In this document: one piece after another, positions 4,370 through 63,897 of the stretch | How the letters are laid out: each line of letters starts with the position of its first letter | Numbering within the stretch: position 1 is the stretch's first letter | Source: Calditrichaceae bacterium | Lineage (GTDB): Bacteria > Calditrichota > Calditrichia > Calditrichales > JBFXGD01 | Direction of reading: 5' to 3' | Length of the DNA stretch: 64,000 nucleotides | NCBI GenBank assembly: GCA_050173015.1 | Contig: JBFXLE010000011.1 | Location: forward strand, 43,718-107,717 | Translations under genes and position numbers: made by a program | Notes under the pieces: generated by a model | What the model saw: only the letters and a program-made list of their open reading frames with translations | The model's database searches: none | What the model was told of the DNA's origin: nothing

Positions 4370-6334
4370 ATGGAAATACCGTTTCTTGTTGATATAGTTA
4401 TAATTCTTGGATTATCAGTTCCCGTATCCTTTGTTTGCAGTAAGCTGAAAATACCCACTATTGTTGGATTTTTAATCACGGGAGTCCTCGCCGGACCGGC
4501 AGGGCTTTCGCTTGTGAGCGCGATGCATCAAGTGGAAGTTATGGCGGAGATAGGTGTTATTCTCCTGTTATTTTCCATCGGTCTTGAATTTTCGTTTAAA
4601 CATCTCTTTGAGTTAAGACGCACGGTTTTGGTTGGTGGCGCGATACAAGTCGGTTTAACAATTTTGCTGACAGCGATGATCGCGCAATTATTTGAATTCA
4701 GCTGGGAAAAATCAATTTTTTTCGGATTTCTGGTTGCCTTGAGCAGTACAGCGATTGTATTAAATCAGCTGCAGGCTTCTTCGGCGATTGACGCGCCTCA
4801 TGGCCGGACATCTTTGAGCATACTCATTTTTCAGGATATCGTGATTGTTCCGATGATGATATTGACACCTCTCTTATCCGGCAATAGTCAGCTTAATATT
4901 AGCTATGTTGCATTGCTTCTTGGTAAAGCCACCTTGCTGGTCGTGTTTGTTTTTGTGGGAACCCGCTGGCTGATCCCGAAAATATTTTTTCAGATTGCAA
5001 AAACTCAGCTTCGCGAACTCTTTTTATTAAGCATTGTATTTCTTGCTTTTGCCATTGCATGGCTGACTTCAATGATTGGACTGTCATTGGCACTGGGAGC
5101 TTTTTTAGCCGGTCTGATGATTTCAGAATCAGAATACAGTCATAATGCTATTTCACATATATTGCCGTTTCGTGATATATTTCTGAGTTTCTTCTTTGTA
5201 TCCGTAGGAATGCTGCTCGATATCAGGACGATTCTCAATCATTATGAAATTATAATATTTGTCCTTTTTGCCCTTATCATGTTAAAAATATTTACATCGG
5301 GAGCGGCCGCCTTAATTTTGGGCTATCCCTTGCGAACGGCTGTCTTTGTGGCCCTGGCGCTTGCCCAGATTGGCGAATTTTCGTTTGTACTGGCAAAAGA
5401 AGGCTACAGTCAGGCATTGATGACCGGGGAATTTTATCAGATATTCTTATCGGTTACGATACTGACCATGATATTCACGCCGTTTCTCATTTCAATAGGT
5501 GAATATTCAGACAGAATCGCGAATTTCCTACCCCTTCCTTCCGGAATTAAAAACAGAAGATTTTCAGAATATAACGCGACGAAAACAATTGAGAAACATC
5601 TCATAATCGCCGGATTCGGATTAAGCGGAAGAAATCTGGCTCATACAGCCCGGTCGGCGCAAATTCCATATATCATACTCGAAATGAATCCTGAAACGGT
5701 AAGAACGGAAAGATTTAAAGGTGAGCCGATATATTTTGGGGATGCCTGCCAGATATCTGTTCTGAAGCAGGCGGGAATACATTCCGCCAGGGTAATAGTT
5801 GTCGCGGTGTCAGATATTGCTGCCCTAAGAAGAATTGTATTCCTGGCGAAGCTCGAAAATCCTGAAATTTACGTCATCGCGAGAACCCGTTTTGTCAAGG
5901 AGATCGAACCGCTCCGGGAGCTTGGAGCCGATGAAATTGTGGCTGAAGAATTCGAATCATCCATTGAAATTTTTACACGCGTTCTAAAACGATTTTTGAT
6001 TTCGGATGAACTGATAGACGCGCTTAATTCTGAAGTTCGAGCTGACGGGTATAGCCAACTAAGAAAACCGGATTGGTCAGTTCACGCTCTGGATGATTTA
6101 AAACTGCCCGATGTCCGGGTGAGTCGGATGACGGTGACCGCGGTTTCCGGGCTTGCGGATAAAACTCTCTCAGAGATCGGGCTTCGCAAAAAATACGGTG
6201 TAACCCTGCTGGCTATCATTCGGGCGAAAAATGTGATTTCCAATCCTTCATCCGAAGAGCGAATTGTTGCAAATGATCAACTTATTGTGCTTGGCCACCC
6301 GGATCAGATAAGTGTATTGTTGACAAAGATCTGA
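4370..6334 (+). CDS. CPA2/Kef-family cation:proton antiporter with TrkA-N and TrkA-C domains
   Basis: AEIGVILLLFSIGLE, LIFQD, LAQIGEFSFVL, GFGLSG Rossmann motif, C-terminal RCK-C. Confidence 0.93.
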   Translation: MEIPFLVDIVIILGLSVPVSFVCSKLKIPTIVGFLITGVLAGPAGLSLVSAMHQVEVMAEIGVILLLFSIGLEFSFKHLFELRRTVLVGGAIQVGLTILLTAMIAQLFEFSWEKSIFFGFLVALSSTAIVLNQLQASSAIDAPHGRTSLSILIFQDIVIVPMMILTPLLSGNSQLNISYVALLLGKATLLVVFVFVGTRWLIPKIFFQIAKTQLRELFLLSIVFLAFAIAWLTSMIGLSLALGAFLAGLMISESEYSHNAISHILPFRDIFLSFFFVSVGMLLDIRTILNHYEIIIFVLFALIMLKIFTSGAAALILGYPLRTAVFVALALAQIGEFSFVLAKEGYSQALMTGEFYQIFLSVTILTMIFTPFLISIGEYSDRIANFLPLPSGIKNRRFSEYNATKTIEKHLIIAGFGLSGRNLAHTARSAQIPYIILEMNPETVRTERFKGEPIYFGDACQISVLKQAGIHSARVIVVAVSDIAALRRIVFLAKLENPEIYVIARTRFVKEIEPLRELGADEIVAEEFESSIEIFTRVLKRFLISDELIDALNSEVRADGYSQLRKPDWSVHALDDLKLPDVRVSRMTVTAVSGLADKTLSEIGLRKKYGVTLLAIIRAKNVISNPSSEERIVANDQLIVLGHPDQISVLLTKI

Positions 6335-8312: not shown

Positions 8313-9170
8313 ATGTCAAGTATAACATCTGAAATCATCGAAAGTATTATATCTCAGGTCATTAGCGAATCGAATCTGGAGAGTTGCAGCAATTGCGAAG
8401 AATGTCCAAAAAGCTGCAAGCCATTCACTTATGAAGGAGCGAATGATCTGGTTTCATTTGGAGCGAGCCGTGTAGGTACCGTGGCGCCAAGTTGTCCTCC
8501 CAAATATGAGATGGCCAAATGGATTGATCACACGTTTCTAAAGCCCGACTCCACTAGGGACGACATCGAAAAAATTTGTGACGAAGCGCTTGAAAATAAT
8601 TTTGCTTCTGTATGTATCAATCCTTTTTGGGTATCGCTGGCAAGCAGAAAACTCCGGAATTCAAAGGTTAAGGTATGCACGGTGGTCGGTTTTCCTCTTG
8701 GGGCGACTTTTCCCGAAATTAAAGCGGCGGAAACTCAGGCGGCGGTGGATCGCGGAGCCGAAGAGATTGATATGGTGATTAATGTCGGCGCCCTGAAATC
8801 TGGTGATTATGACACGGTTGAACGTGATATCCGCGCGGTTGTAAGAGCAGCGGGACGGCGTGTTGTAAAAGTGATCATCGAAGCCTGTCTTCTTACCGAC
8901 GAAGAAAAAGTGACCGCCTGCGTGATATCCCAAAGAGCTGGAGCAAACTTTGTTAAAACTTCGACCGGATTCAGTAGCGGCGGCGCGACCGTTAAGGATG
9001 TAGCGTTGATGCGTCAGGTGGTCGGTCCGCGGATGGGTGTTAAGGCAAGCGGTGGTGTTCGTACCTACGATGAGGCCTGCAAAATGGTTGAAGCCGGAGC
9101 CACAAGGATCGGCGCTAGCGCGAGTGTGGCAATCGTAAGCAATGGTCAGGCGAAATCTACAGATTACTGA
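8313..9170 (+). CDS. deoC: Deoxyribose-phosphate aldolase with N-terminal encapsulation-peptide-like and Cys-rich extension
   Basis: [41 protein letters not shown]; ~65-aa N-terminal extension. Confidence 0.95.
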
Positions 9171-12237: not shown

Positions 12238-14691
12238 TTACTTTATCAGCATCATTTTTCTAATCGAACTTTCGCGGTTATCAACGGACAGTTTATAAAA
12301 ATAAAGCCCGCTTGATAAATTTGAACCGTCAAATTTTACCTGATAGGTTCCGGTGGCCTGATTTCTATCGACCAGGCGCGCCACAGTTTGACCAAGGATA
12401 TTATAAACAAGCACACTTACATGGCCGGGTTTGGAGATAGAATATTTGATGGTCGTTTCCGGATTAAACGGATTCGGATAATTTTGATTTAATTTGAAAT
12501 CCGCTATAATAAAGCCGTCATCATGAACCGCAGTGGGAATTCCAAATTCACTGGCGCCGATATCAATCCGGTTGCCGTAGATCCTGTCCACGCCATTTAT
12601 CGCGTACTGATACAAATTTAAACCGGTTGTATCCGGGGTACCGGCATCGATGCACGCGGAACCCTCCGAAAGGTTGTATAGAAGGGAATCGGCGAATTCC
12701 GGGGCGACGTCCAGACAATTGGAATAAATCCCGCTGTACTCAATTCCGGCTCCGTCACCGCTGAAACCGGAGGAATCACCCTCGATGTCACAGTAATAAA
12801 AATCAGGATCACAGGTAGTTTCCAACCGGATCTGTGTGCTTTCATTGCCATAAATAATGTTATTGTACAACTCATTTACAGAAGTTGCCCGGAAACTAAT
12901 TCCTCCGGATTGATTTTCTACTATCGTATTGTTAATAAAACGAGAATTGGACTGATAGCTGTATATACCATAACTGGAATTATTGAAGATCAAATTGCTG
13001 ACAAAATCCGCCTGATTGGAGTATCCGGTATAAACGCCGGATGATGAATTATTGAATATTTTATTGTTATAGATCCAGGGTTGAGAATCGCTCCCGCCAA
13101 TCAACATACCGTAACCATAATTATCATGAATACCGCAGTTTTCGATCACAGGCGAACTATTATCAATATAAACGGCCGCATTGATCCCGTGATTAAAACG
13201 AATATCTGAATGACGAATAAGCAATTTTGAAAATCCTGTGATGTAAAATGCCCCACCATCTTTGTTGATATTGTTGGGATCCCCGTAAGGATTTCCGTAT
13301 TCTATAACGCAGTAGGAAAAAACCGATGTGTCGTTGGCCGCAGGAGTTTGATTAAATAAAATCCGGTTCCAGCCTTCTTGCTGATCCGCGGCGGTGAACT
13401 TAATAGAATCACTCTCCGCGCCTTCCGCGATAAGAGTCCCCTGCACATCGATATAGAAAAATCCCTGGAATATTATTTCGACACCGGGTTCGATAGTCAG
13501 TGTGGTCCCGTCTTTAATAATGATATTTCCATCGATCAGATAGGGTGAATTTTCTTTCCCCCACACCCCCGCAACGGTATCAGTTTTGACATAATATTCG
13601 TACGCGCCGATATCGATCAATCCATTGCTAAATCGTTGTTTACCGGATAGATCAAGAACAGGTAAGGAAGCGTCATAAATATCGTTATATCCCTTGTCCC
13701 GGCAGGGAGAAAGCTTCTGAAGGGCATAGGGGGCATCTCCGGTATTCATAAAGAGAGGATCACTATCAAGGCAATTGCTATAGATTCCCGTAAATTCTGC
13801 GCCTGCGCCGTCTCCGTTAAAATATTCTTTTCCGCCCATGATATTGCAATTGTAAAAATTAGGATCACAGGTTGTTTCCAACTGAATTTGTGTCCCGGTA
13901 TTAGCATAAATAGTATTATTGTACAAATTATTTACCGAATTCGCGCGGAAAAAAATTCCTCCGTTTTGATTTTCTACTATCGTATTGTTAATAAAACGAG
14001 AATTGGACTGATAGCTGTATATACCATAATTGAAATTATTGAATATAAGATTATTGACAAAATCCGCCTGATTGGAGTATCCGGTATAAACGCCGGATGA
14101 TGAATTGTTGAATATTTTATTATTAAAAATCCCGGGTTGAGAACCGCTCCCGCCAATCAACATACCGTAACCATAATTATCATGAATACCGCAGTTTTCG
14201 ATTACAGGCGAAGCGTTATCAATATAAACGGCCGCATTGGTGCCATGATTCTGACGAATATCGGAATGACGAATGCTCAGTTTTGAAAAGCCAGTGATGT
14301 AAAAAGCGCCGCCGTCCTGACTGTTTGAATAAGGTTTACCGTATTCAATAATACAGTAATCGAACAAGGAACTGTCATTCGTAGCGGGCGTCCCGGAGAA
14401 AAGAATCCGGTTCCACCCCTCCGTTATGTTGGATGCCGTAAACTTGATCGAGTCACCGGCGGTGCCCACTGCCTGAACGGAACCCTTGACATCAATCATG
14501 TAAAATCCTTCTGCAATAACGGTTGTACCGGGATTGACCCGCAGATGAACACCGTCTTCAATTAAAATGTCACCTTTTACAAAAACCGTGTCCGCATCCC
14601 ACGCTGAATCGGTTGAAATCGTTCCGGAAACATCGATAGATGAGGCCAGAGTAAAAGATGTCAGACATAATACCAGTAAAATTTTGTACAT
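12238..14691 (-). CDS. Secreted right-handed beta-helix repeat protein (two tandem modules) with T9SS/FlgD-type C-terminal domain
   Basis: Signal peptide; Asn-rich PbH1-like repeats twice, each module ending IDIGA; C-terminal QNYPNPFNPETTI...KMMLIK. Confidence 0.85.
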   Translation of the reverse strand: MYKILLVLCLTSFTLASSIDVSGTISTDSAWDADTVFVKGDILIEDGVHLRVNPGTTVIAEGFYMIDVKGSVQAVGTAGDSIKFTASNITEGWNRILFSGTPATNDSSLFDYCIIEYGKPYSNSQDGGAFYITGFSKLSIRHSDIRQNHGTNAAVYIDNASPVIENCGIHDNYGYGMLIGGSGSQPGIFNNKIFNNSSSGVYTGYSNQADFVNNLIFNNFNYGIYSYQSNSRFINNTIVENQNGGIFFRANSVNNLYNNTIYANTGTQIQLETTCDPNFYNCNIMGGKEYFNGDGAGAEFTGIYSNCLDSDPLFMNTGDAPYALQKLSPCRDKGYNDIYDASLPVLDLSGKQRFSNGLIDIGAYEYYVKTDTVAGVWGKENSPYLIDGNIIIKDGTTLTIEPGVEIIFQGFFYIDVQGTLIAEGAESDSIKFTAADQQEGWNRILFNQTPAANDTSVFSYCVIEYGNPYGDPNNINKDGGAFYITGFSKLLIRHSDIRFNHGINAAVYIDNSSPVIENCGIHDNYGYGMLIGGSDSQPWIYNNKIFNNSSSGVYTGYSNQADFVSNLIFNNSSYGIYSYQSNSRFINNTIVENQSGGISFRATSVNELYNNIIYGNESTQIRLETTCDPDFYYCDIEGDSSGFSGDGAGIEYSGIYSNCLDVAPEFADSLLYNLSEGSACIDAGTPDTTGLNLYQYAINGVDRIYGNRIDIGASEFGIPTAVHDDGFIIADFKLNQNYPNPFNPETTIKYSISKPGHVSVLVYNILGQTVARLVDRNQATGTYQVKFDGSNLSSGLYFYKLSVDNRESSIRKMMLIK

Positions 14692-15118
14692 GCACTTCTC
14701 CTCGTGATTAAATAGTTCTGCCTTATTTATTTGTATGAATCTATATTAACGATACAACCTTGGTGTCTGGCGTTGATATTGCGCACGATTTCAATTCGGG
14801 TACTGATTTAATTAAATCGGGTTAGGGTCATAAACTTTTTTTTAAACTCGACTTTTAATGAATGAATCTTTAAAAAAAAAACATATTAGTGAAAAAATGA
14901 TCAATTGATGAGAAAAAATAGGATTGTGAAGTTTCGAAAGATGGATTGAAGGAGTGTCGATGATTGAAGAATTCGATCCGGCCATACTGGTTGGGTAAAT
15001 TTTCTGCTTTGTATTTAAGATGTGTAATAGTATATTTCTCAATAGCCTGCTATTTTTTCAATATGCTTATACTCAAAAGATAAAATAAATGAACAGCGCT
15101 TTTTAGTGAGGATAAAAA

Positions 15119-15574
15119 ATGAACTGTAATTTTAAGAAATTGCTTACAGGGAAAGCATTGCTGATTAGTCTGACGATATTCATTTTAATAGTTTCCTGTG
15201 ACAATGATTCTGCGGGGCCATGTGCGCATATCTATGAAGAGCCAATTCTCAGTGTGATTTCCGCTAGTGCTGTCGATACTCAGCAGGGAATTGACAGGAT
15301 TGAGCTTAAATCAATAAAAATTGACGGCATAGACGCTGAACTCAATATTCTATTGGACCAGTCATCAAATATTAATCGGCTGGACAGTACGCTGATCTGC
15401 AATATTCCCTGTGCCTTCGGCACTCAAACGGGGGAATACAGTTTTATGGTCTCCGCGGAAGGCTACAGGGATTCCCTCTATACACTGGATGTGCAATATA
15501 AGTACTCTGAGGGGGGCTGTCCATCCCGGTCATGGGGGAGTCAGGAGATGATGATAGAGTTAGCGCTTCAATAA
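15119..15574 (+). CDS. Hypothetical lipoprotein
   Basis: Lipobox LIVS-C after a hydrophobic stretch; several Cys. Confidence 0.75.
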   Translation: MNCNFKKLLTGKALLISLTIFILIVSCDNDSAGPCAHIYEEPILSVISASAVDTQQGIDRIELKSIKIDGIDAELNILLDQSSNINRLDSTLICNIPCAFGTQTGEYSFMVSAEGYRDSLYTLDVQYKYSEGGCPSRSWGSQEMMIELALQ

Positions 15575-15624
15575 AAGGACATTGATATAATGAGATAAAA
15601 TAAAATTCCATAAACATATTATGA

Positions 15625-15849
15625 TGGGTAAAATTCAATGTTAGCAAGGATGGTTTATTTGCGGGCGCGGCGCTTGGTCCTGGAATTGGCGGGCTTGTGG
15701 GATACATTATGGATTCAGATAGTGAGGACCCTTCTCCCATAGAAGTGCTCGTTGTGTTTCACTCTTTTGCGGGGGGTCTTTTAGGAGGGCTCATTGGTAC
15801 TCCCATAGGTATTATCATCGGTAAACGAGACATCTATTATTTCAAATAG
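15625..15849 (+). pseudogene. Glycine-zipper-like membrane protein remnant without an upstream start codon
   Basis: Reads DGLFAGAALGPGIGGLVG...GGLLGGLIGTPIGIIIGKRDIYYFK*, but an in-frame TGA lies at 15622 with no start before the first zipper. Confidence 0.45.
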
Positions 15850-16055
15850 CAAAATCAACTGAAAACTCTGATTACAATAAACGATGAATCATGAACTCCT
15901 TAAATCAGATGAAGATGGTTCAGATAAATTAAAAATGGGGAATTCACCGGAATTATAATAAAAGTCATGAAAAAAACATGACCCTTATCAGCAAGATATT
16001 ATCCCGGTTTCTTCTCTCCTAAAAGACAGTGTGCAAGGCAGACCCGCCTCCCCGA

Positions 16056-18351: not shown

Positions 18352-19905
18352 ATGAGACCGGTTTGTTTAATTGTTAGAGACGGTTGGGGGTATAATGAAA
18401 ATCCCAAAGGCAATGCGGTGATGGCCGCTCATACTCCCAACATTGATTCATATAAAAAGAATTATCCCTGGATGTTGATTAAAACATCCGGCGAAGCGGT
18501 AGGGTTACCGGAAGGTTTTCAGGGTTCCAGTGAAGTCGGACATCTTAATATGGGCGCCGGGAGGATAGTTGTTCAGGAGCTAAAAAGAATCGACGAGGGA
18601 TTTAGAGACGGTTCGATTTTCAGAACCGAAAAATGGACGGCGCTGATCGGGCAGTGGAAAGAGAATAAATCACAACTTCATTTAATGGGACTGCTGCAGG
18701 ATGAAGGAGTCCATGCCCATATGGATCATCTATTTAAGATTATCCGGCAGGCCCGTAGTGAGTACGCGGAAGGGAAAATCGTTATACATCCTTTTCTCGA
18801 TGGCAGGGATACCCCGCCAAGAAGCACGCTCGAGTATATCGCCAAACTGAAATTGGTAATGCAGGAGGCGGGAGGCTGCAAAATCGGTACCGTGATGGGA
18901 CGATACTACAGTATGGACCGTTCCAGGGACTGGAAACTGACGGATAAAGCCTATAACTGTATTGTCAATCTCGATGGCCGCGGGACGGAGACGGCTGAAG
19001 ACGCGGTGAGAGCCTCTTATGAAAATGATAAAACTCCGGATAATGTGGATATGTTTGATGAGTATATCCCACCTTATGTTGTCGCCGGATATGAAGGCGT
19101 GAAGGACGGAGATTGTGTTTTTCATACAAATTACCGTCAGGACCGCGCCATACAGCTTACCATGGCTTTCGTTGATGAGCGTTATCCCGGGAAACTGCAA
19201 AAAAAGGTCCGTGTCCGTTATCTTGGATTTACCCGTTATTATGATGAGTTTAAGGAATATCTCATGGGAGCGATGGGATCCGGCGGGGCCATGAATAAAC
19301 TTCTTGGGGAAGTGATTTCAGAAGCTGGTCTTAAACAGCTGCGCTTGTCCGAGACACAAAAATTTCGACATGTCACAAGCTTCTTTAACGGTAAGTTGAC
19401 AACACCTTATCCGGATGAAGACCAGGTTGAGATTAAAAGCGATATTGATCCCGCGGCATTTGCAAGTCACCCGCAGATGGAAGCGGCTGCTATTACCGAT
19501 GAGCTATTAAAAAGAGTTGAAAATAATCCATATGGTTTCATTCTGATCAATTATCCGAACGGCGATATGGTTGGCCATACAGGCGATTTTAACGCTGCAA
19601 AAAAAGCTGTTGAAATAGTAGATGAAAATATCGGTAAAGTAGTGAAAAGACTTCTGCAACTGGACGCCCATATTCTTATCACAGCCGATCACGGCAATTC
19701 GGAGCAGATGTTGGATTATGAAACCGGCATGATAAAAACAAGTCACACCACTTTTCCGGTGGAATTGATCTATATTGCCAAAGACGCGAATGTGTGGAAG
19801 CTCAAGGATGACGGAAAACTCGCGGATATAGCGCCAACTATTTTGACGTTGCTTGGTCTACCGATCCCAAAAGAAATGACAGCAGACGTGTTGATAAAAA
19901 AATAG
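18352..19905 (+). CDS. gpmI: 2,3-bisphosphoglycerate-independent phosphoglycerate mutase
   Basis: RDGWG, GSSEVGH, DGRDTPP, DMVGHTG, TADHGN. Confidence 0.95.
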   Translation: MRPVCLIVRDGWGYNENPKGNAVMAAHTPNIDSYKKNYPWMLIKTSGEAVGLPEGFQGSSEVGHLNMGAGRIVVQELKRIDEGFRDGSIFRTEKWTALIGQWKENKSQLHLMGLLQDEGVHAHMDHLFKIIRQARSEYAEGKIVIHPFLDGRDTPPRSTLEYIAKLKLVMQEAGGCKIGTVMGRYYSMDRSRDWKLTDKAYNCIVNLDGRGTETAEDAVRASYENDKTPDNVDMFDEYIPPYVVAGYEGVKDGDCVFHTNYRQDRAIQLTMAFVDERYPGKLQKKVRVRYLGFTRYYDEFKEYLMGAMGSGGAMNKLLGEVISEAGLKQLRLSETQKFRHVTSFFNGKLTTPYPDEDQVEIKSDIDPAAFASHPQMEAAAITDELLKRVENNPYGFILINYPNGDMVGHTGDFNAAKKAVEIVDENIGKVVKRLLQLDAHILITADHGNSEQMLDYETGMIKTSHTTFPVELIYIAKDANVWKLKDDGKLADIAPTILTLLGLPIPKEMTADVLIKK

Positions 19906-19930
19906 CCCGGTCGATGGTTTGGGAAAAATT

Positions 19931-21610
19931 GTCCACTGATTTCACGGATTACACAGATTACTTAGAAAAAAAATATATCAATTTAATTCTAATCCGTGAA
20001 AATTAGTGAAATCCGTGGACCATCTTGAAAGGCCATCGAAAAAGAAACAAGCCCGCGAATTACACGAATTACCACTAAAATGAAAAAAAGTAATTATTAA
20101 TTGGTGAAAATTAGTGAAATTAGTGGGCCATCTTAAAAAACCGCAAGAGAAGAAGAATTGTCCACAGATTGCACAGATTATTTAGAAAAATAACTATATA
20201 AATTTAATTCTAATCCGTGAAAATCGGTGAAATCCGTGGACCATCTTGAAAGGCCATCGAAAAAGAAACAAGCCCGCGAATTACACGAATTACCACTAAA
20301 ATGAAAAAAAGTAATTATTAATTGGTGAAAATTAGTGAAATTAGTGGGCCATCTTAAAAAACCGCAAGAGAAGAAGAATTGTCCACAGATTGCACAGATT
20401 ATTTAGAAAAATAACTATATAAATTTAATTCTAATCCGTGAAAATCGGTGAAATCCGTGGACCATCTTGAAAGGCCATCGAAAAAGAAACAAGCCCGCGA
20501 ATTACACGAATTACCACTAAAATGAAAAAAAGTAATTATTAATTGGTGAAAATTAGTGAAATTAGTGGGCTATCTTAAAAAGCCGCAAGAGAAGAAGATT
20601 GTCCACAGATTGCACGGATTACACAGATTATTTAGAAAAATAACTATATAAATTTAATTCTAATCCGTGAAAATCGGTGAAATTCGTGGACCATCTTGAA
20701 GGGCCATCTAAAAAGAAACAAGCCCGCGAATTACACGAATTACCACTAAAATGAAAAAAAGTAATTATTAATTGGTGAAAATTAGTGAAATTAGTGGGCT
20801 ATCTTAAAAAGCCGCAAGAGAAGAAGATTGTCCACAGATTGCACGGATTACACAGATTATTTAGAAAAATAACTATATAAATTTAATTCTAATCCGTGAA
20901 AATCGGTGAAATTCGTGGACCATCTTGAAGGGCCATCTAAAAAGAAACAAGCCCGCGAATTACACGAATTACCACTAAAATGAAAAAAAGTAATTATTAA
21001 TTGGTGAAAATTAGTGAAATTAGTGGGCTATCTTAAAAAGCCGCAAGAGAAGAAGAAATGTCCACAGATTGCACGGATTACACAGATTATTTAGAAAAAT
21101 AACTATATAAATTTAATTCTAATCCGTGAAAATCGGTGAAATCCGTGGACCATCTTGAAAGGCCATCGAAAAAGAAACAAGCCCGCGAATTACACGAATT
21201 ACCACTAAAATGAAAAAAAGTAATTATTAATTGGTGAAAATTAGTGAAATTAGTGGGCTATCTTAAAAAGCCGCAAGAGAAGAAGATTGTCCACAGATTG
21301 CACGGATTACACAGATTATTTAGAAAAATAACTATATAAATTTAATTCTAATCCGTGAAAATCAGTGAAATTCGTGGACCATCTTGAAAGGCCATCGAAA
21401 AAGAAACAAGCCCGCGAATTACGCGAATTACCACTAAAATGAAAAAAAGTAATTATTAATTGGTGAAAATTAGTGAAATTAGTGGGCTATCTTAAAAAGC
21501 CGCAAGAGAAAAAGAATTGTCCTCAGATTGCACGGATTACACAGATTGTTTAGAAAAAAAATATATATAAAATTAATTCTAATCCGTGAAAATCAGTGAA
21601 ATTCGTGGAC
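19931..21610. repeat. Tandem array of 220-230-bp units, each with two long imperfect hairpins (8 type A, 7 type B); REP/BIME-like
   Basis: A hairpins (GTCCAC...GTGGAC) start at 19931, 20160, 20381, 20601, 20830, 21060, 21289, 21519; B hairpins (GCCCGCG...GTGGGC) start at 20051, 20272, 20493, 20722, 20951, 21181, 21410. Confidence 0.97.
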
Positions 21611-21623
21611 GATCTTTGCTTTT

Positions 21624-23090
21624 CTATGGCAATTTTGCCAGTTCGATGATCAGATTTTTATGCATCTGATTCAAATTGGCAAGGGATCCGCTGTAATTAT
21701 TAGCAATAATGGAAAAGGCAATCAACCGCCCCGTCCTGCTTTGCACATAACCGGACAGACTGCGCACCCGGGCGAGTGTGCCTGATTTTAATCTGGCATT
21801 ATTTGCGAGAATGGTGTTGGATCCGAATGAACTAAATGAAGCCGGGTCGGCAGGATCTCCCGCAATGCCGAGTGAGTTGTAAAAATAGTCGAAGTATGGA
21901 TGAGAAGTCATATTTACAAGCAATTGGGTTATGGATTCGGTCGTAATACTGTTTTCCCTGGAAAGACCGGAGCCGTCATACAGATGCATGCCGTCCGTTG
22001 ATATTTTGTTGTTTTCACAAAAATTATAAAGAGAATGGATACCTTGTTTGATTGATGAGTTTCCGGTTTTTTCAAGAGCGATCAGGCGCAGGAGCTGCTC
22101 GGCGTAGAGATTCATACTGCGTTTATTTGTGTAATATACGATTTCCTTTATGGGTGATGACATCGTTTTGTGTATTAATTTTGCAGAATTATAGCTTATG
22201 GTCTGATTCTGTTTTTTCGGAATTCCGCTTATGGCTATACCCATCTTTTTAAGTTGATCGGAAAAATATTGGGCAGTGAACAAAGCGGGGTCAGGGATCG
22301 AACCCTTAATGGCGAACTCACTCACACCCGCGGGAACGGTTCCCCGCAGAGTTGCCGTATATTGCCCGGGAGCGCAATATATATAACCGCGATCACCGGA
22401 GCCTCTGCGTCCGGTTAACATATGATTGTCGAAGCTGAGTCCGGGAATAACCGGTTCTGTTCTAAGTGTGTTGGCGGGTTGACCGTTGAATTTGCCCGGT
22501 TTGAAATAAAGAAAATAAAGATTGTCATGGATTGATAAAGCATTGGTGCCTGCGCCGTAGTAATTTCCAATATCACCCCAGGTCCAGTTATCGGGTACGG
22601 CGTTACCGCTAAAAAGCAAATCATCAGCGATAATCGCGCCGCGGATTTCCCTGATGCCCTTTTTCCCGACAGCAACAGCCCACTCAGCCATCAGATTATT
22701 TAGCGAAGCGGAACTGTCTATTCTGTCCGAGCCGAGTGCCGGATCTCCTCCGCCTTTAATGTAGATATTTCCGGTTAGAATACCATCAGGTCCTATATTT
22801 CCGTCATAATAGAGGTGTGTTTCGATTCGATGATCAGGGCCGAGCAGATCCAGAGCGGCCGCGGTGGTTAGTAATTTTAGGCCCGAAGCTGGGGCCAGAC
22901 TGGCGTTGCCGTTAAAATCGATAATAACTTCAGAATTATCCGTGTATTGAGCATAAATACTCCATTGCGCATGACGGAGGCTGTAATAATTCTGATAAGA
23001 GTCAATCAGTTTTTGGAGCTGGTTTTGCGCAAAGAGCAGTGCGGGTATTATCAATATTAATATCAAAGTCGTTATTATTCTATTTCGCAT
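21624..23090 (-). CDS. dacB: D-Ala-D-Ala carboxypeptidase/endopeptidase PBP4 (peptidase S13)
   Basis: PASGLK (SxxK), SMN, DGSGLSR, KSGT. Confidence 0.93.
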   Translation of the reverse strand: MRNRIITTLILILIIPALLFAQNQLQKLIDSYQNYYSLRHAQWSIYAQYTDNSEVIIDFNGNASLAPASGLKLLTTAAALDLLGPDHRIETHLYYDGNIGPDGILTGNIYIKGGGDPALGSDRIDSSASLNNLMAEWAVAVGKKGIREIRGAIIADDLLFSGNAVPDNWTWGDIGNYYGAGTNALSIHDNLYFLYFKPGKFNGQPANTLRTEPVIPGLSFDNHMLTGRRGSGDRGYIYCAPGQYTATLRGTVPAGVSEFAIKGSIPDPALFTAQYFSDQLKKMGIAISGIPKKQNQTISYNSAKLIHKTMSSPIKEIVYYTNKRSMNLYAEQLLRLIALEKTGNSSIKQGIHSLYNFCENNKISTDGMHLYDGSGLSRENSITTESITQLLVNMTSHPYFDYFYNSLGIAGDPADPASFSSFGSNTILANNARLKSGTLARVRSLSGYVQSRTGRLIAFSIIANNYSGSLANLNQMHKNLIIELAKLP

Positions 23091-63841: not shown

Positions 63842-63897
63842 GGAGGTTAAGAAAAAAGAAAAAAGATAAAAGAAAAAAGTGACTTGTCCTGAATAAA

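Follow-up and report, generated by a model that had tools for sequence, protein, structure and literature searches.

Between the convergent genes gpmI and dacB on contig JBFXLE010000011.1 of a Calditrichaceae bacterium, the DNA consists almost wholly of long hairpins repeated in tandem. What are these hairpins, and how did they come to fill this spacer? We addressed the question in the surrounding 64,000 nucleotides (64 kb), which are the whole stretch of DNA analyzed and are referred to below as the window, and in related hairpins from other genomes. On balance, we favor the view that the block is built, as a higher-order tandem array, from cargo-less members of a widespread foldback-type hairpin family, spread in trans by a nuclease of the GxxExxY family. 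Its membership of the family and its amplification in place are highly probable, and the identification of the GxxExxY nuclease as the mobilizer of the hairpins is a distinctly more tentative proposal. The argument rests on the family membership of the array, on the link of the family to GxxExxY genes, on the dispersal of the same arms within one genome, on one site found both filled and empty, and on the pattern of growth in place.

An array of two hairpin subtypes

Tandem Repeats Finder (TRF) delimited the array at 19923-21616, with a period of 229, 7.5 copies and 96% matches. It takes up the convergent gpmI-dacB spacer, has an A unit at both ends and holds no open reading frame (ORF) of at least 60 aa, the longest being 35 aa. 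The unit starts gave eight A and seven B units, in agreement with the 15 alternating hairpins described in the first-pass annotation of this DNA. The A units start at 19930, 20159, 20380, 20600, 20829, 21059, 21288 and 21518, which reproduces exactly the periods reported there (229, 221, 220, 229, 230, 229 and 230 bp), and the A and B arm sequences given with them were found in the window letter for letter. The period series required one correction: the units of 221 and 220 bp, A2 and A3, miss one 9-nt module, and this in the left arm only. A two-module motif (at most one mismatch) occurred 28 times in the window, every time within the array, for an expectation of 0.04. The features are listed here; no strand is assigned to the array or its hairpins, and hairpins were placed by unit alignment and folding unless stated otherwise.

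19923..21616: whole array, 7.5 copies of the 229-bp AB dimer, 8 A and 7 B (TRF, unit starts, unit alignment)
19931..20020: hairpin A1, edge copy, the most diverged together with A8
20051..20128: hairpin B1, unit identical to B2
20160..20241: hairpin A2, left arm one 9-nt module short, unit identical to A3
20272..20349: hairpin B2
20381..20462: hairpin A3, left arm one 9-nt module short
20493..20570: hairpin B3, unit identical to B4 and B6
20601..20691: hairpin A4, unit identical to A5
20722..20799: hairpin B4
20830..20920: hairpin A5
20951..21028: hairpin B5
21060..21150: hairpin A6, the A sequence quoted in the first-pass annotation (unit starts, folding)
21181..21258: hairpin B6
21289..21379: hairpin A7
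21410..21487: hairpin B7
21519..21610: hairpin A8, edge copy, most diverged
18352..19905, plus strand: gpmI, 2,3-bisphosphoglycerate-independent phosphoglycerate mutase, complete (Pfam; TIGR01307 positions 2-503 of 504)
21624..23090, minus strand: PBP4/S13 D-Ala-D-Ala carboxypeptidase (dacB-like), complete (Pfam PF02113; TIGR00666)

The gpmI stop lies about 25 nt ahead of A1 and the dacB-like stop about 8-14 nt past A8.

All 15 units fold as hairpins of 78-92 nt. An AB unit formed two long imperfect hairpins on either strand (z of -4.7 on the plus strand and -5.4 on the minus strand, with none of 200 shuffles folding as well), and DNA parameters led to the same outcome. An exact-seed inverted-repeat finder returned no pair in the array because the arms are broken by a mismatch every 3-4 bp. 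The A left arm reads CCAC-AGATT G CACGGATT A CACAGATT, and the right arm is its imperfect complement, closing in GTGG; the B left arm reads CGCGAATT A CACGAATT, and B terminates in GTGGGC. The outer ends are GTCCAC/GTGGAC for A and GCCCGC/GTGGGC for B. The arms had been described as subrepeats of about 9 nt with regular mismatches, and these mismatches were indeed found at two places, namely module position 4 and the spacer between modules.

The two subtypes are related. Aligned in direct orientation, A and B units are identical in 81 of 126 columns (64%), with a score of 31; shuffled sequences scored -1.4 ± 4.3 and the reverse complement -7. Both descend, with divergence, from a single hairpin unit of about 115 bp repeated in direct orientation, and the array is therefore a higher-order repeat of this unit, split into two subtypes. 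This geometry defeats the analogy, drawn at first, with bacterial interspersed mosaic elements (BIMEs), which are regularly spaced repetitive extragenic palindromes (REPs) in alternating orientation (excerpt of PMC2817692).

We considered more broadly whether the block could be a REP/BIME cluster mobilized by a REP-associated tyrosine transposase (RAYT, a Y1 HUH transposase) whose gene lies elsewhere. In favor of this, the repeats are palindromes that cluster between genes, and the tandem reiteration of REP dimers with flanking DNA is known for REP families (excerpt of PMC3733652). Yet, REPs are palindromes of 20-40 bp with a conserved terminal GTAG or CGTC tetranucleotide (same excerpt), whereas the hairpins of the array measure 78-92 nt and bear neither tag at their ends. 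Furthermore, no Y1/HUH gene was found among the 48 ORFs of the window, nor in a scan of 300 of the 359 ORFs close to members of the hairpin family, and the gene that does accompany the arms encodes a predicted PD-(D/E)XK nuclease (see below). Taken with the direct orientation of A and B, these features make a RAYT-driven origin barely credible.

Several units are identical (A2 and A3; A4 and A5; B1 and B2; B3, B4 and B6), and the edge units A1 and A8 diverge most. Such a combination of identical neighbors and diverged edge units is what growth and homogenization in place, through unequal recombination or slippage, usually leave behind. We conclude that the array was enlarged on the spot by tandem duplication; the pattern is unlike that of 15 separate insertions. 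The first-pass annotation had placed a mobilizer elsewhere and had cited, by analogy, amplification by a trans-acting nuclease. The first part agrees with the absence of a candidate in the window; as to the second, the unit pattern points to local tandem duplication rather than to nuclease-driven insertion.

Identical units also raise the possibility that the copy number, or the entire array, is an assembly artefact of a single AB pair, since such repeats are hard for short reads. Yet, the copies carry ordered private and shared variants (the A2/A3 deletion, a substitution pair in A4/A5, a difference between B1/B2 and the other B units, and the diverged edges), and smaller tandem clusters of the same family exist in other genomes (loci L011, L031, L035, L065 and L120 of the survey described below). 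An artefact is accordingly improbable.

The array is not a CRISPR, as had already been stated, because the intervening sequence is itself repeated at 96% identity and no cas gene is present among the 48 window ORFs, which also comprise no transposase, integrase or nuclease candidate. An integron attC array was rejected as well: no integrase is encoded in the window, no ORF of more than 35 aa lies between the hairpins, and no R''/R' core sites (motif GTTRRRY) were seen in the array, in a comparison made by eye only. A reading as DnaA boxes of an oriC, suggested by TTGTCCACA, was discarded in view of the cumulative GC skew, which climbs across the whole window without a turn.

A dispersed family of module-built hairpins

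To which family do these hairpins belong? It was sampled by one genome scan with a three-module pattern that fits the A left arms, which yielded at least 127 loci (designated by L numbers), with 162 matches among those listed; 80 of the 127 listed loci were retrieved with 2-kb flanks and the other 47 with 300-bp flanks. By record title, the listed loci belong to Bacteroidota, Chloroflexota, Acidobacteriota, Planctomycetota, Verrucomicrobiota, Lentisphaerota, several proteobacterial classes and candidate phyla. The family thus spreads over more than 10 phyla among the matches listed, two archaeal metagenome-assembled genomes (MAGs) included. Within 700 nt, an inverted partner agreeing at 16 or more of 21 positions was present on the correct side for 67 of the 162 listed matches (51 of 127 loci) and on the wrong side for only 4. 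Most loops of the listed hairpins measured 5-100 nt, and others formed a second set of 310-500 nt.

The family is defined by CACRRATT-type 8-nt modules every 9-10 nt, outer CCAC...GTGG ends and a spacer base that is often unpaired. The modules of the array are CACRGATT and CACGAATT. Its arms hold at least two such 8-nt modules in tandem at 9-10-nt spacing, bounded by CCAC...GTGG, and all 15 units have a partner arm downstream, with the spacer mismatches and the position-4 mismatch. The inter-module spacer is mismatched in 26 and 28 of 50 family hairpins; as spacer mismatches pile up across the family, the regularly spaced mismatches of the array are a family trait. A distinct palindromic repeat family, as had been proposed from the array alone, therefore exists, the arms of the array matching dispersed hairpins in more than 10 phyla. 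When the window segment 17001-24000 was compared by blastn with the 127 listed loci, matches were of arm length only, the genome that carries the array was not represented and no empty gpmI-dacB site was seen; one AB unit gave no blastn match in plasmid records.

The phasing of the modules at about one helical turn suggested another possibility, namely that the block is a double-stranded DNA array bound by a protein (a nucleoid, partition or regulatory protein), with the 9-10-bp spaced CACNGATT modules as sites and the hairpins as a by-product. The unconstrained spacer bases and the recurrence of near-identical modules in many phyla would fit this idea. If the modules were independent sites, however, the two arms of a hairpin would not need to co-vary. 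Yet, the arms agreed at 4.48 of 6 variable positions within a hairpin compared with 2.74 of 6 across loci (50 non-redundant hairpins; 0 of 2000 permutations). In addition, the same arms surround genes and loops of 5-500 nt, and no candidate binding protein is encoded among the window ORFs. We consider a protein-binding array very improbable.

Among the 80 loci with long flanks, the neighboring ORFs are co-directional in 38 cases, convergent in 13 and divergent in 3. Another 15 loci fall inside an ORF of at least 100 aa, some of them probably because the match is due to chance or the ORF is spurious, and 11 are at contig edges. Tandem clusters of 2-3 units were present at the five loci named above, that of L031 being an alternating 86/100-bp pair, and no array above this size was seen among the 127 listed loci. 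Hairpins are nested at L041, L102 and L126. At L041 (Salinisphaera, 1770-1920), a CGCAGAT-module hairpin sits inside the loop of a CACRGATT-type hairpin. At L070 (Flavobacterium, 1875-1980), the loop of a CACGAATT hairpin contains another long palindrome (GTCATCCTGAGCGAAGTCGAAGGAC and its complement), so that one repeat family seems to sit within another. In a deltaproteobacterial MAG (L081, 330-700), a CACGAATT hairpin has a loop of 400 nt that contains a series of small hairpins (NNNAAAC-4 nt-GTTTNNN) and no GxxExxY remnant.

GxxExxY genes within and beside module-built arms

Genes of the GxxExxY family (PF13366/TIGR04256) exist in thousands of copies across bacteria. A remark in the first-pass annotation that similar repeats lie beside such genes was borne out in both directions, from the motif to the gene and from the gene to the arms. 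Among the motif-selected loci, L104 and L047 have arms around a 400-500-nt loop with a PF13366/TIGR04256 ORF, and L046 has such a gene flanked by two complete short hairpins. A profile of five GxxExxY proteins, run over all six-frame segments, added L124, whose loop of 188 nt retains no more of the protein than its 38 N-terminal residues, ending at the GxxE motif. L124 is therefore an internal-deletion derivative.

In the other direction, nine distinct GxxExxY genes were taken from plasmid records by tblastn with two proteins, without recourse to any DNA motif. Module-built arms or hairpins, as judged by eye, were present within about 200 nt of all nine. The gene is enclosed by CACAGAGGA modules in Bacteroides finegoldii (L130; inverted-repeat score 24, reached by 1 of 218 controls), by CACAGAGA modules in Bernardetia (L131; score 20, 6 of 218 controls) and by CGCGAAG modules in Sphingomonas (L135; score 24, 1 of 218 controls). 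A complete module-built hairpin adjoins the gene at L129, L132, L134 and L136; direct copies of a AATCCGTG-type arm lie on either side of it at L133, and one CACGGATT module per side at L128.

The genes share further features. All eight that could be assessed are co-oriented with both neighbors and separated from them by short spacers, as in radA-GxxExxY-FAD protein and fabD-GxxExxY-fabG. Several copies are broken (L046, L047 and L134 by frameshifts, L124 by truncation), a decay that is typical of selfish genes. Protein identity averaged 41.4% within and 34.0% between arm classes (3 of 5000 label shuffles), the classes having been assigned by hand for 12 proteins. Thus the proteins with CACGRATT arms from Muribaculaceae (L104), Treponema (L128) and Chloroflexia (L046) are 45-51% identical, and those with CAGAG(G)A arms from two Bacteroidota and Gemmatirosa (L130, L131, L134) 42-55%, whereas two Gemmatirosa copies with unlike arms share 30% protein identity. 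In these sequences, protein similarity appears to follow arm class across phyla and not host.

What kind of protein is this? A survey of PD-(D/E)XK enzymes in 2012 gave the function of PDDEXK_3 (PF13366) as 'Unknown' and described mixed bacterial and archaeal clades (excerpt of PMC3424549). We retrieved 611 homologues at E ≤ 1e-10. In 56 aligned homologues, D68 and K80 never vary and the conservation of E28 and E78 is 90% or higher, a pattern that fits a D...ExK site. Searched by sequence, the Protein Data Bank (PDB) returned no relative (best E 0.23, a nitrogenase). The AlphaFold model (pLDDT 94.6), in contrast to the sequence, had Cas4 SSO0001 as its top PDB fold (E 4e-4, TM 0.56-0.62), with lambda exonuclease, LHK-Exo, the AdnAB/AddAB nuclease domains, Cas4 Pcal_0546 and Hjc as further near folds. 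On the strength of these folds, GxxExxY (about 125 aa) is predicted to be a minimal Cas4/RecB-type PD-(D/E)XK nuclease core.

Three cases bear on movement. A 24.8-kb B. finegoldii record (NZ_OY725952.1, L140) contains one gene-carrying element and three gene-less hairpins (5402-5585, 8746-8895 and 12838-12907) with common CACCACAGAGGA...GTGG arms. L080 and L086, on different contigs of one MAG, share an element of about 250 bp at 78% identity, the likeness stopping at the arm ends. Between fabD and fabG, S. parapaucimobilis has an insert of about 430 bp made of arms plus gene, and S. paeninsulae an empty spacer of 32 nt.

The same records yielded a few additional observations. In L140, a gene for a cofactor-independent phosphoglycerate mutase has its 3' end overlapped by a CACRGATT-type hairpin (22229-22307); that this gene lies beside a hairpin there and beside the array here may be coincidence or may reflect a preferred site. 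The start of a 'zinc ribbon' coding sequence (CDS) in L140 (8731) overlaps a hairpin, and the annotated GxxExxY CDS of S. parapaucimobilis (L135, 1195-1623) reads into the right arm, which encodes about 20 of its C-terminal residues; hairpin arms probably distort annotated gene ends. At L137 (26117-26146), an isolated right arm of the Bernardetia type, located upstream of purQ, adjoins an IS4 transposase gene and may be the remnant of a hairpin split by the insertion sequence.

Mobile element or host RNA

How could these observations be connected? A single hairpin unit would have landed in the convergent gpmI-dacB spacer and been duplicated, after which the two duplicates would have drifted apart into A and B and the AB dimer would have been amplified about 7.5-fold via unequal recombination or slippage. 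A trans-acting GxxExxY nuclease, encoded elsewhere in the genome, would recognize the arm modules and spread the family. Full-size members carry, inside the loop or flanked by two hairpins, a GxxExxY gene of about 125 aa that runs in the direction of the host operon, and the short hairpins are gene-less relatives with matching arms. Cassettes with the gene and foldbacks without it, having matching arms, could form an autonomous/non-autonomous pair, of which the latter would be spread or maintained in trans. The hairpins would be tolerated in transcribed, non-promoter spacers, where they may fold as RNA stems that are harmless or mildly useful; those of the array may also block read-through between gpmI and dacB. 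The array is most likely a cargo-less satellite of a foldback- or REPIN-like element.

We considered the alternative that the hairpins are host-selected RNA elements (3'-end stabilizers, read-through barriers or RNase III sites) transcribed from gpmI and/or dacB, and that GxxExxY cassettes merely exploit such stems, as do the intervening sequences (IVSs) of 23S rRNA. The distribution of the loci would suit this idea, as divergent spacers, which contain promoters, are avoided (3 as against 13 convergent and 38 tandem among 80 loci). So would the lack of own promoters and the co-orientation of the GxxExxY genes within operons, and the size of the Coxiella 23S rRNA IVS (428 nt; excerpt of PMC4990558), which is in the class of the cassette of about 430 bp at L135. 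A terminator scan gave 7 matches on the minus strand, at the base of each B hairpin, with the T-rich tail CTTGTTTCTT, though these stems are long and A+T-rich, unlike the consensus; on the plus strand it gave no match inside the array, and no U-tract follows the stems.

If the array had been shaped as RNA, one transcript might be expected to fold better than the other. As RNA, all 8 A hairpins are stabler on the minus strand, by 3.7-8.2 kcal/mol, and all 7 B hairpins on the plus strand, by 6.4-8.5 kcal/mol. A and B thus prefer opposite strands despite their homology in direct orientation, and with strand totals of -320 and -318 kcal/mol no single transcript is favored. Neither were compensatory changes found among the copies of the array, and the module loss in A2 and A3 affects one arm. 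A structured RNA family of Rfam 15 was rejected, as nothing in the window reached the gathering score; a permissive search of the array, at E up to 1, produced only MIR9481, at 24.7 bits for a threshold of 130 bits. All in all, we regard a host RNA function as an unlikely primary explanation, and retain the foldback family spread by GxxExxY as the preferred one.

Several results weigh against this preferred explanation. Two of them suit a host RNA role as well as they do selfish DNA: transition mismatches give a G.U pair in the sense strand in 13 cases and in the antisense strand in 4 (17 hairpins), although the sample is small and the bias weak (9 hairpins biased to sense, 2 to antisense); and an orthologous hairpin has been kept in two Pyrinomonadaceae (L039, about 1995-2055, and L059, reverse strand) with flanks 79% identical, in both genomes between a LigD 3'-phosphoesterase gene and a DUF488 gene and with three modules in the left arm and two in the right. 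Others concern the gene. A GxxExxY gene or remnant was found in just 4 of the 127 listed motif-selected loci, and a Pfam scan of the 300 of 359 ORFs revealed no other recurrent cargo, so most hairpins stand alone; profile and six-frame searches of the window detected no GxxExxY gene or remnant. An inverted repeat that clearly encloses the gene was established statistically for only three of the nine plasmid genes, L128, L129 and L133 having scores within the control range and arms called by eye, and the arm classes were those of a hand assignment of 12 proteins. The 122-aa nuclease core has no obvious extra domain for DNA recognition. At the Sphingomonas fabD-fabG site, no target-site duplication was readable at 72% flank identity. 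Finally, an array of 15 units is exceptional beside the 2-3 seen elsewhere and could reflect selection or assembly.

The systems closest in logic are REPIN/REP-RAYT, foldback (FB) elements or miniature inverted-repeat transposable elements (MITEs), and IVS cassettes. FB transposons have long terminal inverted repeats made of short tandem subrepeats in variable number, and some copies have a coding middle whereas many lack it. The hairpin family resembles them and MITEs by its modular inverted arms, by the gene in some copies, by the internal deletion of L124 and by the nesting at L041, L102 and L126. FB elements are, however, eukaryotic, and in the hairpin family neither a transposase belonging to a known class nor a target-site duplication was seen, and the elements are co-oriented inside operons.

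With REP-RAYT systems and BIMEs the family shares short intergenic palindromes in many dispersed copies (excerpts of PMC3116915, PMC3337134 and PMC2817692), as well as gene-less copies that far outnumber gene copies, and dimers reiterated in tandem (excerpt of PMC3733652). The arrangement hairpin-GxxExxY-hairpin at L046 and L136 recalls that of REP-RAYT-REP, in which a nuclease-type gene lies between the same palindromes. In contrast, the gene of the present family would encode a Cas4/RecB-like PD-(D/E)XK nuclease instead of a Y1 HUH transposase, it is multi-copy and often decayed, and the same module recurs in many phyla; the arms, of 25-30 nt, are built of 8-nt modules, and the hairpins measure 80-90 nt, or about 450 nt with cargo.

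Stems of IVSs are excised by RNase III. The Coxiella 23S rRNA IVS is, like the cassettes, a selfish insert of similar length with one small ORF and a long bracketing stem, tolerated in an essential transcript (excerpt of PMC4990558). It differs in that the IVS ORF encodes an S23p/four-helix-bundle protein and the insert lies in rRNA helix 45, whereas GxxExxY genes lie in what would be mRNA spacers. No 23S_rRNA_IVP match was obtained in the 300 scanned ORFs near family members, the annotations of the B. finegoldii record and of 50 kb of the Bernardetia plasmid name no four-helix-bundle gene, and Avd of phage BPP-1 had no tblastn match in plasmid records. Integron attC arrays are comparable in having small, co-oriented, promoter-less cassettes and regularly spaced imperfect hairpins with unpaired bases; here, however, the cassettes are single and dispersed among housekeeping genes and not assembled on one platform.

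No published account of these hairpins or of their link to GxxExxY was found, in a collection of papers with few subscription journals; on prokaryotic foldback elements only eukaryotic or unrelated work was found, and the passage of a myRT preprint that mentions GxxExxY is unrelated to hairpins. The findings point to a kind of selfish DNA element for which we found no description in the literature. As a wider proposal, which we advance with reserve, GxxExxY genes may be the autonomous version of a so far undescribed class of foldback cassettes that crosses the phyla of prokaryotes, shedding gene-less hairpins that spread and can expand into satellites such as this array of 15. Such a cassette would consist of a promoter-less Cas4-like nuclease gene between lineage-specific arms of 7-10-nt modules, and would insert between operon genes; the nuclease would read its own arm modules, giving a programmable-looking match of protein subfamily to module sequence.

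If this were true, the orphan family PF13366/TIGR04256 would gain a concrete, testable role, and a whole stratum of hairpins between genes, seen in Bacteroidota, Chloroflexota, Acidobacteriota and the PVC group among others, would be given an origin. The covariation of arm modules with protein subfamilies across phyla would make it possible to study in a natural setting the way in which a minimal PD-(D/E)XK nuclease reads modular DNA or RNA, and a route that is neither HUH nor DDE would be added for the spread of REPIN/MITE-like repeats. For annotation, the arms would account for many spurious short ORFs and mis-set gene ends, such as that of the L135 CDS. The practical weight for this window alone is modest: the array, set between two housekeeping genes, is probably a satellite that is neutral or of slight use.

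The rest of the window is an ordinary Bacteroidota-type chromosome (T9SS sorting domain, PorV, LolB1), and no tRNA or tmRNA was found anywhere in the window, the array included. Outside the array there is a minor tandem repeat at 15289-15347 (30-bp unit, 1.9 copies), within a gene-poor stretch of 427-481 bp (14692-16055), and (AAGAAAA) in 4.4 copies at 63849-63879, close to the window end. Other tandem repeats lie near family hairpins at L058 (533-875, CTCCGTC-rich units of 62/117 bp) and L114 (367-621, 74-bp unit). Genes for MNT nucleotidyltransferases were present about 1 kb or less from hairpins in three unrelated MAGs (L005, L022 and L037), and that of L037 is paired with HepT.

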